From NCBI GenBank assembly GCA_963704165.1, contig CAVPHD010000008.1:1-64000 (forward strand): 64,000 nt of DNA, in the 5' to 3' direction. The notes under the pieces were generated by a model. The model ran no database searches, had not been told where the DNA came from, and was given only the letters and a program-made list of their open reading frames with translations. This document shows, piece by piece, positions 1 through 21,693 of the stretch. Position numbers and translations under genes: made by a program. The stretch comes from an uncultured delta proteobacterium. GTDB lineage: Bacteria; Myxococcota_A; UBA9160; SZUA-336. Position 1 is the stretch's first letter. Each line of letters opens with the position of its first letter.

Positions 1-204
1 TTCCTCTCCCAACCTTTCTTCGTGGCCGAAGTATTCACCGGCAGCCCCGGTAAATACGTCAGCCTGAAGGACACCATTAGCGGTTTCAAGGCCATCGTCA
101 ATGGTGAATATGATCATCTGCCGGAGCAGGCCTGTATATGGTCGGCAGTATCGAAGAGGCCGCCGAACGAGGCGGTGACGTCTGAACCCCAGACGGGAGA
201 TTGA
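1..204 (+). CDS. atpD: F0F1 ATP synthase beta subunit, C-terminal part (partial, with indels)
   Basis: [44 protein letters not shown] is the conserved AtpD C-terminus; frame breaks after ~130, end approximate. Confidence 0.9.
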
Positions 205-207
205 ACC

Positions 208-630
208 ATGGCGATGACAATCCATGTTGATATCGTAAGCGCTGAAGGTGAGATCTTGTCCGGCAGCGCGGAAATGGTGTATGCGCCGCCGCCATGGGTG
301 AAGTGGGTATCGCACCCCGCCATACCCCGATGGTGACCCGTTTGAAGCCCGGTGAGATCCGGGTGGATCGAGGCGACGGTAAACCGATGCAACACTTTTA
401 CGTTTCCGGTGGTATCCTCGAGGTCCAGCCCCATGTGGTTACCGTATTAGCGGACACCGCGGTGCGCGCGACGGAACCGATGAAGCGGCTGCCCAGGAGG
501 CCAGGCGCGTGCCGAGGAAGCCATTGCCAACAAATCCGCCGAGTTCGAGTACGCCAAGGCCCAGGCGGAACTCGCCGAAGCGGTCGCGCAGCTGCGCGCC
601 ATTAAAAACTTGCGCAGTAAGCGTCCCTGA
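208..630 (+). CDS. atpC: ATP synthase epsilon subunit (frameshifted)
   Basis: MAMTIHVDIVSAEGEI..., GEVGIAPRHTPM, FYVSGGILEVQPHVVTVLADTAVRA, AQAELAEAVAQLRAIK spread over several frames; follows atpD. Confidence 0.9.
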
Positions 631-684
631 TATATCCACGCCATCAGTTGGGTCTGAGTTGCCTCGGGCCCTTATCACATAAGC

Positions 685-1169
685 ATGTCGAAAGAAACTA
701 TCAAAGCCGGTAAAATGTGTTTCCCTGACCTATTCGATTTCCGACACCGAAGGCAACGTGCTTGAACAGAGCGACCTGCCGGTCAAATTACATCCACGGC
801 GGCGAGACCGAGTTGATTGGGGGTATGGACAAAGCCGTTGCCGGGAAAGGCGTGGGTGACGAGGTGACGATCAGGCTTTCGCCGGCGCATGGGTTTGGCG
901 ACCACGATCCGAATCTGACCTTCACGGATGATATCGAGAATGTCCCACCCCAATTCAGACAACTGGGTGCTGAGGTGCAGATGCAGAACGAGGTGGGTGA
1001 AATGAAGAGCTTTTTCGTTACCAAGATTGAAAACGGTCGGCTGACCGTGGATGGCGATCATCCCCTGGCCGGCAAGGAATTGACGGTGAAGGTGAAGATC
1101 CTCGAAGTGCGGGATGCCACCCAGGAGGACGCCACGCATATCGGGATCCCGGCCAGCCCCAAACCCTGA
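685..1169 (+). CDS. FKBP-type peptidyl-prolyl isomerase (SlyD/SlpA-like, no His-rich tail; frameshifted near 5' end)
   Basis: YIHGG...GDEVTIRLSPAHGFG...VDGDHPLAGKELTVKVKILEVRDAT motif; ATG at 685 needs a frameshift to join. Confidence 0.85.
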
Positions 1170-1491
1170 ATTGACCTAAGATTGCCCGGCAGTCGGAGGG
1201 CTCGTTCTCGAATCAGTATCTCTATCGGGTCAAGGCTGGTTTGAAAGCGCAGTACACCCCTCACCAAGGATTTTTTCCAGCCCTGCGAAACGGGGATGTC
1301 TCGTTGGCCGCGATTTGCAGTGTTGGACGCAATAAAACTATACTGATTTTTCTTTTCGTTCTCCATTCACCCGGTCCAGACGCTGTAATTGAATTGATAC
1401 TGGTTTTTTTGTCTCCCGGGTTTTGCATTAGGTTGTCCTGATCGGGTGTTCCGAGAATTTCCACCTGATTCCCTGATTTTTGGAAGTCTTC

Positions 1492-2867
1492 ATGAAACTT
1501 GGTGTCTTGATACTGGCTGCAGGCGAAGGAACCCGCATGCGTTCCAGGCTGCCCAAAGTGCTCCATCGGCTTGCCGGAAAACCGCTGCTGTCAGGCGCAT
1601 GTCATCGATACGGCACGGGATTTGCTCGCCCGATGAAATCACCGTGGTGTACAGCCATGGTGGTGAACAGGTGCGGGATCTGCTCGCTGCGGACGATCTG
1701 GATTGGTGTGAGCAGATACAACGTCTTGGTACCGGTCATGCTGTGATTCAGGCCTTGCCGTATCTCCAGCGGGTCGATCAGGTGGTGATTCTGTACGGAG
1801 ATGTCCCGCTGATCACCGGCCGGACCCTGCAGGCCGCCAATGGTCTGCGCCGCTGTGATCTGGTCCTGCTCACCGAACAGCTCGAAGATGCCACTGGTTA
1901 TGGCCGTATCCTGCGCGATGCCGGCGGCCGGATTACCGAGATTGTGGAGCAGAAGGATGCCAGTGATGAGCAGTTGCTGATCAAGGAGATCAATACCGGA
2001 ATCCTGGCGGTCAAGCGCTCCCGTCTGGAGGACTGGCTGAGCCGGATCGGTAATCGCAATGCACAGCGGGAATATTACCTGACCGATATCATCGCCCTGG
2101 CGGTGCAGGACGGCGTGGAGATCGAGGCGGTGAACCCCGCCAGTGAAGAGGAAGTCATGGGCATCAACGACCGCCGGCAATTGGCCTATCTGGAACGGCA
2201 CGTGCAGCGTGAACGGGCGGCAGGATTGATGAAATCGGGTGTCACTCTGGCCGATCCGGCGCGCCTGGACGTACGCTGGTGAGTTGCACACCGGCAGCGA
2301 TGTGTTCATCGACTGTAACGTCATCTTCGAAGGCCGGGTGGAACTGGCGGATGGAGTGAAGATCGGCCCCAATGTGCTGATCAGGAATGCCGTCATCAAA
2401 GAACAGGTGGAGATCTTCGCCAACAGCGTGATCGAAGATGCAGTGATCGGGCAGGCTCACGCGTCGGACCCTTCGCCCGCATTCGCCCGGAGACCGAACT
2501 GGCGGATCATGTGCATATCGGCAATTTTGTCGAGGTCGAAGAAGAGCCGGGTCGCCTCCGGCAGTAAGATCAATCACCTGAGCTATGTGGGTGACAGCGT
2601 GATCGGCAGCCAGGTGAACATCGGCGCGGGCACCATCACCTGCAATTACGACGGGGCCAACAAACATCAGACCGTCATTGGGGACAATGCCTTCATCGGT
2701 CCGCGACACCCAGTTGGTGGCGCCGGTGACGGTCGGAGCCGGCGCCACCGATCGGCGCCGGCTCCACCATCACCCGGGATACCCCGCCCGACAAGCTGAC
2801 CCTGAGCCGCGCCAAACAGATCAGCGTGGATAACTGGCAGCGGCCGATTAAACAACCCAAAGATTAG
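1492..2867 (+). CDS. glmU: Bifunctional UDP-GlcNAc pyrophosphorylase/glucosamine-1-P acetyltransferase (several frameshifts)
   Basis: [75 protein letters not shown] across frames. Confidence 0.93.
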
Positions 2868-18337: not shown

Positions 18338-19786
18338 ATGAGCCCAAGCCGAGTGTTCAGGGGCGGATGTGCAGGTCTGGTCTGTGCCCTGCTGATCGCA
18401 GGTCTCGCGTGGCCGATCGGAGCCCATGCGCAGGTTCCGAATCGCATCGACTACCAGGGACTGCTGCTCGATTCGGGCGGCCTCGCGATCAACGGCAGTC
18501 AGACGCTCACGTTGCGGATCTGGGACGACGCGGCGTCGGTCGCGCCGGCGTCGCTTCTCTACGAGGAGATCCATCTCGGCGTGCTGGTGACGGACGGGGT
18601 CTTCGACGCCCAGATCGGAGCGGGCACGGCCACGGTCAACGGCGTGTACACGGTCTTCAGCGAGCTGATCTTTCAGGGGCCGAACCGCTGGCTCGAGGTT
18701 CGTGTCGGATCGGAGACGCTCTCGCCGCGGCAGCCGTTCGGCTCGACGGCTTACTCTCTTCAGTGTCAGAACGCGATCAGCGTCGTGAACAGCAGCATCG
18801 GCTCGAGCTCGATCGCCGACGGCTCGATCCAGGCGGCCGACATCGACTCGAGCCAGGTCCAGCAGCGCGTCTCGGCGAGCTGTCCCGCGGGGCAGGCAAT
18901 TCGCAGCGTCGCGTCGAGCGGCGCCGTCACGTGTGAGTCGACGCTGGGCGTCGGGGCGAACAGCGTGATCTCGAGCTCGATCGTCGATGGCGCGATCCAG
19001 GCGGCCGACGTCGACTCGAGCCAGGTCCAGCGGCGCGTCTCGACGAGCTGTCCCGCGTGGCAGGCGATTCGCAGCATCGGTTCGACGGGCACCATCACGT
19101 GTGAGTCGACCCTGAACGTCGGGCCGGACACCGTGACCTCGAGCTCCGTCGTCGACGAAACCATCACGGCTGCCGACATCGGGCCGTCGGGCGTAGGCAA
19201 TACGGAGCTGAACGCCAGCCACGCCTACACCGTCGGCGGGATGACGGTCAACGGGCAGCTTGCAGTCAACTCGGCGGCCGACGTCGTGATCCGAGACGAT
19301 TCGAATGCCTTCCGCTGGTACGACAGTGCAGGTGTGACCCAGCACGGTGCGGTGTGGGTAAGTGCATTCGAGAATCAGTTCTACGATTTCAACCAGGGTC
19401 GCAGCATCTTTCTTTCCAACGCCGACGGCATTGGAATCGGCACGAGTTCGCCGGTATCGGGGTATACCGTCACCGTTCCCAGCCTGCGGGTCAGCGGCAA
19501 CTCGAGTGTCGGCCTCACGCAGGTGGGCGCGAGCTATGCCGTGAGCGCGGCCGTTGCTTCCTGTCACTCCCATGGGAATCTGCCCTGTTATGAGGGCAAC
19601 GGCACCGTCACCTGCCCCGTGGGTACCCGCGTGGTCGGAGGGGGTGCCGCCGGCGTCGGTGTCGGTTCGCGCTACGGGTCGGTCGGGTCCAGCTATCCGT
19701 TGAACTCGACCCAATGGCGCTGTTCCTCGACGTACGACCTCTCGACGAGCCACTGGTGCTACGCGATCTGCGCGCGGCTCGAGTAG
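18338..19786 (+). CDS. Secreted fibre/adhesin-like protein with internal repeats and Cys-rich C-terminal domain
   Basis: Signal peptide AHA|QVP, IDYQGLL...DGVF...WLEVRV...LSPRQ...AYS head, 56-aa repeats, C-terminal CPVGTRVVGGG...SYP...W.C...YAIC. Confidence 0.7.
   Translation: MSPSRVFRGGCAGLVCALLIAGLAWPIGAHAQVPNRIDYQGLLLDSGGLAINGSQTLTLRIWDDAASVAPASLLYEEIHLGVLVTDGVFDAQIGAGTATVNGVYTVFSELIFQGPNRWLEVRVGSETLSPRQPFGSTAYSLQCQNAISVVNSSIGSSSIADGSIQAADIDSSQVQQRVSASCPAGQAIRSVASSGAVTCESTLGVGANSVISSSIVDGAIQAADVDSSQVQRRVSTSCPAWQAIRSIGSTGTITCESTLNVGPDTVTSSSVVDETITAADIGPSGVGNTELNASHAYTVGGMTVNGQLAVNSAADVVIRDDSNAFRWYDSAGVTQHGAVWVSAFENQFYDFNQGRSIFLSNADGIGIGTSSPVSGYTVTVPSLRVSGNSSVGLTQVGASYAVSAAVASCHSHGNLPCYEGNGTVTCPVGTRVVGGGAAGVGVGSRYGSVGSSYPLNSTQWRCSSTYDLSTSHWCYAICARLE
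18803..19180 (+). repeat. 168-bp (56-aa) intragenic tandem repeat, ~2.3 copies
   Basis: TCGAGCTC anchors at 18803, 18971 and 19139; SSSI.DG.IQAAD.DSSQVQ.RVS.SCPA.QAIRS. Confidence 0.9.
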
Positions 19787-19802
19787 GGATGGGGTTCGGC
19801 AC

Positions 19803-20483
19803 TTGAGTCCCCGTCTTCTCAAGATCTGGGCGGTGACCGCGTCGGCGGCCGCGCTCGTCCTGCTCGGCGTCGTGGTTGGCCGATCGAGCGTCGGTGGATC
19901 CGGCGGCGCCGTGCCGATCGCCAGGCCGGATGCGCCCGTGCGCGGATCGACGGAAGCCGAGGCCGCTCTGGGCCCGAACTTCTCCATCCCCACGTCGTTC
20001 ACGGGCCTCGCGACCGAATGGCGGACCGAGACGGGCGGCACGGCCGATGCCGGCTACGCAATTCTCTTCGAGCCGCAGAGTCGTCGGATGATCGTCGATC
20101 GCTGTCTCCACCGTGGGTACTTCGACCTCGCCGCGAACCGACCGGTCGAGCCTGGCGAGTTCTGCAAGACGGTGCTGTCCGGGAGCCTCTCCTCGCTCGA
20201 GGAGAAGGAAGCCAAGGTCACGACACGGGACGGCGCGTCGGTCGATGCGTCTCTCGCGCTCGTCGAGGACAGCGGCGTGAAGCGGCTTCGCATCGCGTTC
20301 GGGGACCACGAGATGCTTCTGGTTCCCGGGAGCAAGAACGATCTCTTCCAGGAGATCGAGCGGACGCCTCGAATCGAGGAGCAGAAGCGCCGCCAGTTCG
20401 AGTACGCGGAGGCGGAGTACCAGAAGCAGCGTCGCGCGCAGCAGGCGCGCGCGGAGGCGAACGATGAACTCCCGAAGGACTGA
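19803..20483 (+). CDS. Hypothetical membrane-anchored protein
   Basis: N-terminal hydrophobic segment, two Cys, charged helical C-terminus; co-oriented with neighbours. Confidence 0.65.
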   Translation: MSPRLLKIWAVTASAAALVLLGVVVGRSSVGGSGGAVPIARPDAPVRGSTEAEAALGPNFSIPTSFTGLATEWRTETGGTADAGYAILFEPQSRRMIVDRCLHRGYFDLAANRPVEPGEFCKTVLSGSLSSLEEKEAKVTTRDGASVDASLALVEDSGVKRLRIAFGDHEMLLVPGSKNDLFQEIERTPRIEEQKRRQFEYAEAEYQKQRRAQQARAEANDELPKD

Positions 20484-21099
20484 AGCGATGTGGCTCGTGC
20501 GGGCGGTTCTCCTCGCGAGTCTCCTGGCGGGACCGGCCGTCGCCGGCGACAAGACCAGCGCCTCGTTCGTTCTCCGCGGCGCGCACTTCAACGCGGGCGG
20601 AAACGGCGCGCTCTACTCGACCGCGCCCGTGCCGGGCTTCGGCGTCGTCGGCGCGACGGTCGGCCAGTCCCACCCGATCACGCCCGCGGGGTCCGCCACG
20701 ACGCTTCGAACGGCGTGGCCCGGCTTCTGGCCGCTCTTCGCGGGGGAGCTCCCGACGCTCGATCTCGATGCCGACGCCCGCCCCACCTTCCTCGACAACT
20801 GCCCGTGGTGGGCCAACGCGGCCCAGACGCCGAGCTTCGAAGATCCGGCGATCGGCCTCGCCTGTCTCTGCGGCGACGTGGATGACGACGGTTGGGTGAC
20901 CGGAACAGATGAGGCCGCCTATCGGGATGGTCTCGCGGTTCCGCTCGGCACCGCGATCGTCGCGCCCGAGAAGTGCTCGGTGATCGGAGACCCGCGACCG
21001 TGCGACGTGCTCGACCGGGCCGTCGTCTCGCGCGCACTTCTCGGCAGCGAACCGGGCATCGACCAGCGCTGCGAGGCGGCGCTTCCACCGCTTCCCTGA
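20464..21099 (+). CDS. Secreted protein with GG...G.TVGQ...GFW domain and TSP3/dockerin-like C-terminus
   Basis: Signal peptide AVA|GD; NAGG...VGATVGQ...WPGFW; DLDAD...DNCP..AN..Q...CLCGDVDDDG. Confidence 0.7.
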   Translation: MNSRRTEAMWLVRAVLLASLLAGPAVAGDKTSASFVLRGAHFNAGGNGALYSTAPVPGFGVVGATVGQSHPITPAGSATTLRTAWPGFWPLFAGELPTLDLDADARPTFLDNCPWWANAAQTPSFEDPAIGLACLCGDVDDDGWVTGTDEAAYRDGLAVPLGTAIVAPEKCSVIGDPRPCDVLDRAVVSRALLGSEPGIDQRCEAALPPLP

Positions 21100-21105
21100 C
21101 GCCCG

Positions 21106-21660
21106 TCACTCCTCCGCGTCGATGACCTCGTCGACGCACGCGATCAACGCGGCGTCCTGCTTGCCCTTGCACCCGGGCGCGATGCCGTTCTCGACCATCT
21201 GCTGATACATCTGCAGCTCGATCGGATCGATCTCCGTGTCACCCGCAGCCTGGCCGTCGCCGTCGTCGCCGTCATCATCACCGAGATCCACTCCGCTCGG
21301 CAGCGTCACACCCATGCCCTTCAGCATCTCGTCCTGCTTCTTCATCGCGGCATCGATCTCGCGCTCGCGTGCCTTCTCGGCGGCCTCTTCGCGCTTCTCG
21401 GCTTCGGCCCGCCGCGCATCGTCGCGTTCGCCGATCTCCTTCTGCAGTCGCGCTTCGGCTTCGCGCTGCTTCTGATCGACTTGGTTCTTGCGGCACTCGG
21501 CTTCACGCCGGCTCTTCTCGGCGTACTGATCGGCGGTCGGTTTGGATCCGTCGGTGTTGATGAGCACCCATTCGTAGTTGCACGACGGCTCCGCAGCGCG
21601 CGCACCGTCGGATCCGAAGAGCATGGCGATCAGAACGGTTCCCAATACGAGCAGCTTCAT
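21106..21660 (-). CDS. Hypothetical secreted coiled-coil/acidic protein
   Basis: MKLLVLGTVLIAMLF...ARA|AE signal, E/R/K-rich helix, DDDGDDGDG, four Cys. Confidence 0.7.
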   Translation of the reverse strand: MKLLVLGTVLIAMLFGSDGARAAEPSCNYEWVLINTDGSKPTADQYAEKSRREAECRKNQVDQKQREAEARLQKEIGERDDARRAEAEKREEAAEKAREREIDAAMKKQDEMLKGMGVTLPSGVDLGDDDGDDGDGQAAGDTEIDPIELQMYQQMVENGIAPGCKGKQDAALIACVDEVIDAEE

Positions 21661-21693
21661 CTCGTTCCCCCATCGCATTTCGGACAATTCCAG

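Follow-up and report, generated by a model that had tools for sequence, protein, structure and literature searches.

A MAT-like fibre gene and its GFW-domain partner in an uncultured delta proteobacterium: a candidate anchor for surface fibres

The stretch of DNA analysed here (the window: 64,000 nucleotides, positions 1 to 64,000 of the forward strand of contig CAVPHD010000008.1, C8 in our numbering) belongs to assembly GCA_963704165.1 from an uncultured delta proteobacterium (GTDB lineage Myxococcota_A; UBA9160; SZUA-336), whose genome is 3.87 Mb long, 68% GC and 84% complete. On its + strand lie three closely packed genes. Gene 1 (18338..19786) encodes a protein of 482 aa, P0001, which we describe as a secreted MAT-like mosaic fibre. 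Gene 2 (19803..20483) starts at TTG and encodes P0002, a familyless protein of 226 aa with one N-terminal hydrophobic helix. Gene 3 (20464..21099) encodes P0003, a putative exported adaptor of 211 aa made up of a signal peptide, a GFW domain and a TSP3/dockerin-like tail. Genes 1 and 2 are separated by 16 nt and genes 2 and 3 share a 20-nt overlap, while the GC content at third codon positions is 0.83-0.85 in all three and matches that of the neighbouring genes, i.e., a normal codon bias. A sequence-only reading of this DNA had described the same tight arrangement along with the motifs of a fibre head and a GFW domain, a DNCP/CLCGDV tail, a repeat stalk and a Cys-rich tip, and all of these are present. 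The architecture it gave for the exported fibre and for the exported GFW protein also stands, with export inferred from signal peptides that, like the transmembrane (TM) helix of P0002, were called by eye (hydrophobic stretch, AxA site) and without a predictor. It had further taken the three genes for one system, and this did not hold up. The conserved unit is made up of two genes, fibre and adaptor, with an orphan gene between them.

The fibre begins with a putative signal peptide (residues 1-31, 18338..18430, +), recognised by its basic start, hydrophobic core and AHA site. This is followed immediately by the conserved head (residues 31-148, 18428..18781, +), which would form the cell-proximal base and is the predicted docking site of the adaptor. 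AlphaFold2 models the head as a β-sandwich with a predicted local distance difference test score (pLDDT) of 91 and a predicted template modelling score (pTM) of 0.82. The stalk is made up of two direct repeats of 56 aa with two Cys each (residues 152-207 and 208-263, 18791..19126, +), identical at 40 of 56 positions. The neck and tip module (residues 290-482, 19205..19783, +) is likely the adhesive end and contains six Cys, all within residues 409-478. No Pfam family is found on P0001 at E ≤1, hence no S74 domain, and no membrane anchor is visible in its sequence.

Residues 29-101 of P0001 match NF053851, the profile of the N-terminal domain of Bdellovibrio MAT fibres, over profile positions 9-80 of 162 (E 5e-9, 36.1 bits, or 38.4 bits for the head domain alone). 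The same profile is matched by all 43 heads scanned from the class (best E 6.8e-12). By these matches the head is related to the MAT N-terminal domain, a kinship that the sequence-only reading overlooked. As the score lies under the curated cut-off of NF053851, which is 60 bits, P0001 is called MAT-like here and not a member of the Bdellovibrio subfamily. Structural searches with the head model returned generic β-sandwich matches only, with no specific relative among PDB or viral structures at E ≤0.001 in Foldseek (0 matches in each), and the best VIA fold match reached Z 6.6 with a root mean square deviation of 3.6 over 83 aligned residues. These searches point to no specific relative and do not establish a new fold.

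The fibre is mosaic in its construction. A second fibre of the same genome (352 aa; L001:4994-6880; G000:C4 ~592,000-593,900) carries the same head, followed by Cys-rich acidic repeats and a C-terminus unrelated to that of P0001. The neck and tip of P0001 in turn have 15 relatives with 43-53% identity, of which 12 are attached to the same head family and three to another N-terminus. One tip relative belongs to a gammaproteobacterium, which suggests that tips are exchanged between phyla. A Cys/His-rich motif in the tip (window positions 19562-19771) is invariant across 16 proteins and may be a metal or ligand site, while the neck and tip have no sequence match in the PDB. It is the combination of head, repeats, tip with relatives and a second fibre with the same head that leads us to regard P0001 as a MAT-like mosaic fibre.

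The GFW domain of P0003 (residues 28-97, 20545..20754, +) is predicted to wrap around the base of a head trimer as a clamp, with one chain per trimer. It has no meaningful match in Pfam, NCBIfam or the PDB, and modelled alone it is poorly folded (pLDDT 62, pTM 0.26). In the ESM Atlas, both the GFW domain and gene 2 reach only unnamed clusters with scores of 0.76-0.81, which are unusable. The tail (20755..21096, +) is made up of one TSP3-like unit (residues ~98-134) and a Cys-rich dockerin-like domain (residues ~136-211) with six invariant Cys and a degenerate second loop. Its profile matches thrombospondin repeats and solved dockerins in the PDB, the latter with E-values of 1e-4 to 0.07. In a set of 20 tail members, all contain TSP_3 at E ≤0.01 and four contain Dockerin_1 (best E 2.8e-9). 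P0003 itself scores 16.2-18.5 bits against TSP_3 (PF02412), under the 25-bit cut-off, and its unit is therefore called TSP3-like. Dockerin_1 (PF00404) does not match P0003, and one paralogue reaches 22 bits against a cut-off of 22.9. The sequence-only reading had raised the question of how many proteins share the CxCGDV tail, and there are 11 copies in the genome (P0003 and 10 other proteins), seven of them C-terminal and four internal. This module of TSP3 unit and six-Cys dockerin-like domain has multiplied and is borne by many large extracellular proteins in the lineage. A search with P0003 gave matches in 34 of 61 genomes (its own and 60 relatives), up to 23 in a single genome, and those listed are mostly to the tail alone; a search of the genome contigs with P0003 for related loci found nothing.

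The sequence-only reading held such head proteins to be frequent neighbours of GFW proteins, and the two do co-occur far above chance, both within the class and across phyla. The genome has just two heads and as many GFW genes. Each GFW gene has a head next to it, in tandem in one pair and divergently, without a TM gene, in the other. Among 225 genomes of the class, 35 carry GFW, at 39 loci in all, and 72 carry heads, at 119 loci. A head lies within 5 kb of GFW at 32 of these 39 loci, where about 0.16 would be expected by chance. Gene order is not fixed, as GFW comes first at 20 of the 32 paired loci, the head comes first at seven, and the genes are divergent at five. By genome, heads are present in 32 of the 35 with GFW versus 40 of the 190 others, although related genomes are not independent samples. 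One false GFW (G025, L074) was rejected on inspection; it is kept in the denominator of 39 and was left out of alignments A4 and A9. GFW genes that look frameshifted were seen at G185:C27, L088 (G160) and L089 (G217). The last two have no head in the region examined nor in the genome, which would fit genes that decay once the fibre has been lost.

Pairing was also followed beyond the class. GTDB genomes were scanned with a DNA motif only, giving a broad GFW set of at least 120 loci, 119 of them in frame among the matches listed, to which the counts for this set refer throughout. The titles of these loci include Planctomycetota, Verrucomicrobiota, Chloroflexota, Gammaproteobacteria, Acidobacteriota, Eisenbacteria and Zixibacteria. 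With a head profile built from the class only, a head is found within 5 kb at 51 of the 80 loci with flanks, a count in which an open reading frame (ORF) with overlapping head and GFW (L119) was scored as a miss, and at 29 of the 39 loci whose flanks reach 5 kb or more on each side. Head and GFW are co-oriented at 50 of the 51 paired loci. In eight further genomes, a head is close to 14 of the 20 GFW copies, or to seven of 12 when seed loci are excluded, where 0.26 would be expected; arrays with three heads and one GFW gene were also seen there. A search of plasmids with the head only led to Haur_5099 on plasmid pHAU01 of Herpetosiphon aurantiacus, and a GFW gene follows directly after it. This ORF (CP000876.1 128426-128713; L212:6959-7246) has 95 codons, overlaps the Haur_5099 stop by 4 nt and is made up of a signal peptide, a GFW domain and a short tail. 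It is missing from the PLSDB gene table, where the locus tags go from Haur_5099 to Haur_5100. In two unrelated genomes, single ORFs (L027:5658-7295 and L119:5725-6450) run in frame from a head into the latter half of a GFW domain and its tail. They may be natural fusions, but as they could also be deletions or assembly errors, they are not used as evidence here.

Because the motif behind the broad set was the analysts' own choice, the homology of the two GFW groups was tested separately. The class profile was built from 142 domains, just one of which contains the literal motif. It matched 34 of 8487 six-frame ORFs, all of GFW type, and all 118 real domains scored with it outscore their own motif-fixed shuffles (median 16.8 vs 6.5 bits). 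The class and broad groups align with an hhalign probability of 86.4 over 28 columns. Judged by these profile comparisons the two groups are homologous, with the class type being a long form of the domain.

The domain behind GFW swaps between lineages, from PEP-CTERM signals to dockerins, T9SS-like tails and others. Among 136 representatives of the class-type domain, with C-terminal classes assigned by regular expressions, 17 carry a PEP-CTERM-like signal immediately after GFW, while in 50 GFW is followed by another motif, a TM helix and a basic end. The rest are made up of 10 with the CxCGD tail, 13 that are otherwise dockerin-like, 20 that are short or truncated and 26 that are unclassified. 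TIGR02595 scores above its cut-off in all four direct GFW fusions tested, and dockerin_GC does so in one of two planctomycete examples (L120), while the tail profile of the type IX secretion system (T9SS), TIGR04183, gives weak matches in L122 and L203. The 119 broad loci end in dockerin-like domains (46), FxRL-type motifs typical of Verrucomicrobiota loci (46), YLPLV-type motifs (8), FxNGFE-type motifs (8) or other sequences (11). The FxRL, YLPLV and FxNGFE types matched no family, and from their position we take them to be putative sorting signals. PEP-CTERM proteins, the targets of exosortases, are retained at the cell surface, and a protein with only a signal peptide, a GFW domain and a sorting signal would have little role besides presenting GFW there. 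GFW also occurs within larger proteins (P0051, P0134 and P0152, the last at L028:2173-3831), in which the parts ahead of it look like a LamG-type domain, a metallophosphoesterase and an in-frame PEP-CTERM protein.

A predicted complex provides insight into how the two proteins may fit together. The broad GFW consensus contains an internal repeat (offset 19, p 0.001 vs column shuffles), which was first noticed by eye in the alignment and was the reason for modelling three heads with one GFW chain. This arrangement reaches ipSAE scores of 0.81, 0.80 and 0.81, compared with 0.01-0.16 in three controls. The 3:1 runs share at least 90% of their contacts, with 306-321 contacts at the predicted interface, and the partner chain has a pLDDT of 77-81 and the heads one of 92. 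In the model, GFW positions 1-27 and 30-68 contact all three heads, using the same surface on each. This surface bears the YQG strand, the DGVF turn and also the LxPRQ region, and covers positions 7-21, 53-63 and 88-109 of the head domain (numbers in the full protein are higher by 30). Neither head nor GFW has a solved relative by sequence in the PDB. The model supports binding between head and GFW without showing it.

Most likely, fibre and adaptor would both be exported via Sec and the fibre would trimerise. A single adaptor would then fold on binding, with its GFW domain predicted to clamp the three-chain base of the fibre, and its tail would fasten the complex to the surface so that the variable tip points outward, where it would bind a ligand outside the cell. 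Most relatives would be attached through a PEP-CTERM-type signal, whereas in this copy the dockerin-like tail would bind some surface scaffold. We put at roughly 0.7 the probability that an exported adaptor mounts anchorless trimeric MAT-like fibres on the surface-anchoring system of its lineage, with binding predicted by the model and anchoring argued from the modules behind GFW. The docking that the sequence-only reading had proposed is thus matched by a predicted interface between a fibre trimer and GFW that stands well clear of its controls (0.81 vs 0.16). Attachment through the tail fared less evenly: it gains from relatives that fuse GFW to recognised sorting signals, while the receptor of the dockerin-like tail is the weakest step for this copy. 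Prey recognition, which the sequence-only reading had offered beside adhesion, gains no support here, and a role in predation was not adopted, since no result bears on lifestyle and the pair is found in many phyla.

Several observations weigh against the mounting of fibres by the adaptor, or against parts of it. The link is weaker when read from the head, with a GFW neighbour for 36 of 119 heads in the class and for 20 of 47 in the eight further genomes, and with the first profile 40 of the 72 head-bearing class genomes had no GFW match; a broader and better profile added two more GFW beside heads among 20 regions. Adaptors may also act on fibres whose genes lie elsewhere, and the excess of heads would then be accounted for. 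Seven of the 39 class GFW loci lack a nearby head, these being the one false positive, two that look frameshifted and four with heads elsewhere in the genome. The score of the P0001 head under the NF053851 cut-off belongs here as well. With respect to the complex, the internal repeat is undetectable in the class alignment, whose family includes P0003 (p 0.66), and the interface columns are only modestly more conserved than others (0.59 vs 0.46, p 0.012). Among 157 solved complexes 116 attain the score mark used here, as do 2 among 215 mismatched pairs, but this calibration is only rough for a multi-copy job with supplied alignments (76 of 89 rows locus-paired) and a preset 3:1 ratio. Finally, P0003 has no TM anchor, and for this copy no Pfam cohesin (PF00963) was found in the 84%-complete genome. 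An expanded tail without a Pfam cohesin suggests that a further scaffold or receptor exists.

Alternatively, the GFW protein may bind the fibre base only as an assembly or export pilot, acting as a trimerisation clamp or a piggy-back secretion tag and not as a lasting anchor. In favour of such a pilot, heads outnumber adaptors (119 vs 39 loci, and arrays of three heads to one GFW gene), the weakly matching tails resemble T9SS export signals, and P0003 lacks a membrane anchor. However, the 17 of 136 proteins that are just a signal peptide, GFW and a PEP-CTERM-like signal imply retention at the surface, and the predicted interface is large. We regard a pilot as unlikely. Still less likely is that the dockerin-like tail sends the fibre to a released structure, such as matrix, vesicles or an extracellular scaffold, or merely provides stability through Ca, leaving the fibre off the producing cell. 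Against release, the tail sits where close relatives have PEP-CTERM-type signals. A released fibre would fit the lack of a Pfam cohesin, but a divergent scaffold would escape Pfam and part of the genome is missing; it would also fit a tail that is shared by 11 proteins, internal in four of them, and that in P0003 has no Dockerin_1 match.

The mounting of fibres by an adaptor needs two proteins, and gene 2 lies between them. Beyond its single N-terminal hydrophobic helix, P0002 has a β-rich region, in which two Cys are conserved, and a charged helix at the C-terminus, and it matches nothing in Pfam or NCBIfam. Among 5.8 billion proteins it has a single homologue, P0155 (46% identity over 166 aa), and it is on account of this homologue that we consider it a real gene. 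The tight spacing, with no significant terminator between genes 1, 2 and 3, would suit a three-gene system in which P0002 is a dedicated membrane component, and gene 2 may be co-transcribed. Its distribution speaks against such a role, as it is found in one of the 225 class genomes and is absent from the second pair of this genome and from the other loci checked, and a dedicated membrane component is in our view very unlikely. Gene 2 is probably a dispensable insertion, and it is not a conserved part of the system.

It is also conceivable that fibre and GFW protein serve the same process and do not bind, the predicted complex being an artefact of the supplied alignments. Predictors can lay Gly-rich extended peptides on β-edges, and the calibration did not span user alignments or multi-copy jobs. 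Such an artefact seems highly improbable given controls at 0.01-0.16, three runs that agree and an identical surface on all three heads, as well as a GFW domain without a confident fold alone and a pairing that survives shifts in gene order, orientation and anchor.

The fibre-like repeats and tip are all that recalls a prophage or tailocin tail-fibre remnant, a reading already largely refuted and hardly credible given the signal peptides, the absence of any meaningful PHROG match for P0001, P0002 and P0003, a head unmatched in 50,697 phage records, a GFW motif found once in a viral contig collection, and the lack of tail genes among the window ORFs scanned. The sequence-only reading had likewise seen no phage genes nearby, and none is present among 36 window ORFs, a selection, scanned against Pfam. 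The surroundings are of a housekeeping kind, including upstream a gene of the GlcNAc 2-epimerase family and downstream an MBOAT gene. No sigma-70 promoter was found at the locus, and no RNA data set is listed as containing it, which says nothing about its expression. A convergent gene on the - strand (21106-21687) encodes a small, charged, helical and apparently exported protein with no Pfam family at E ≤1e-5, and the start of the contig (window positions 1-2000) has a GC content of 56%, compared with 65-74% elsewhere.

Comparison with known systems places the adaptor that would mount these fibres more precisely. P0001 and the MAT fibres of Bdellovibrio bacteriovorus (non-S74 subgroup) share a signal peptide, an immediately following β-rich domain, which in MATs measures about 130 aa and here corresponds to residues 31-148 behind a signal peptide called by eye, a repeat stalk and an exchangeable tip. 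At 482 aa, P0001 is shorter than the MATs of strain HD100 (626-1959 aa; PMC10769870), and its tip has no solved relative by sequence. S74-subgroup MATs carry a C-terminal S74 peptidase/chaperone domain that P0001 does not have. According to Caulton et al. (2024, PMC10769870), the N-terminal domain of MATs presumably attaches to some surface element that has yet to be identified. In the accessible parts of that paper no anchor or partner gene is named, nor is a MAT anchor named in the accessible parts of a 2026 review (PMC13689555). P0001-type fibre genes differ from the account given in those parts of the MAT paper in being linked to a partner gene across phyla. The GFW adaptor is a candidate for the anchor that the MAT paper leaves open. 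Our searches of bioRxiv and of PMC papers under open licences turned up no account of this adaptor.

The modules behind GFW are those of PEP-CTERM/exosortase, dockerin and T9SS sorting (TIGR02595, NF041540, PF00404, TIGR04183). Such modules normally anchor their own carrier. Behind GFW they would hold a second protein, the fibre, with the adaptor as a non-covalent link. The tail of P0003 resembles the cohesin-dockerin systems of cellulosomes in that its profile matches solved dockerins and in that many extracellular proteins of one genome bear it. It differs from them in its six invariant Cys, its fused TSP3 unit, its degenerate second loop and the absence of a Pfam cohesin from the genome. 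A further lead is PamT, the proposed tip pilin of the Pam pilus of the candidate phyla radiation (NF058579; PMC13278184), whose N-terminal model positions 4-82 of 241 are weakly matched by GFW domains. The matches concern five of 89 GFW members at E ≤0.1, the best being L096 (E 5e-6), with L111 and P0034 weak too. PamT was rejected as the GFW family, since these matches fall far below the 240-bit cut-off and P0003 does not match NF058579, and it is kept as a lead only. PMC13278184 calls PamT a truncated Ig domain and nowhere in its main text uses the term 'trimer'. The weak matches hint that Pam pili might carry trimeric fibres.

Taken more broadly, GFW may be a general socket, in which one pseudo-symmetric chain grips the threefold base of a MAT-type fibre and plugs into whichever sorting system the lineage has, be it exosortase, a dockerin scaffold, T9SS, other C-terminal motifs or perhaps the Pam pilus tip. 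We consider this slightly better than an even bet. If true, the GFW socket would be the class of surface element missing from the MAT paper and would account for the movement of fibre genes among phyla whose envelopes differ. For the question of MAT anchoring, the pairing offers a small and concrete partner with a predicted 3:1 interface on the conserved motifs of the family, and since the cultured Herpetosiphon aurantiacus DSM 785 encodes the pair, the question can be tested directly. The socket would also give a function to very many hypothetical or tail-fibre-like proteins in Planctomycetota, Verrucomicrobiota, Chloroflexota, Gammaproteobacteria and the class studied here, and the clamp itself would be a compact natural module for the display of trimeric proteins.

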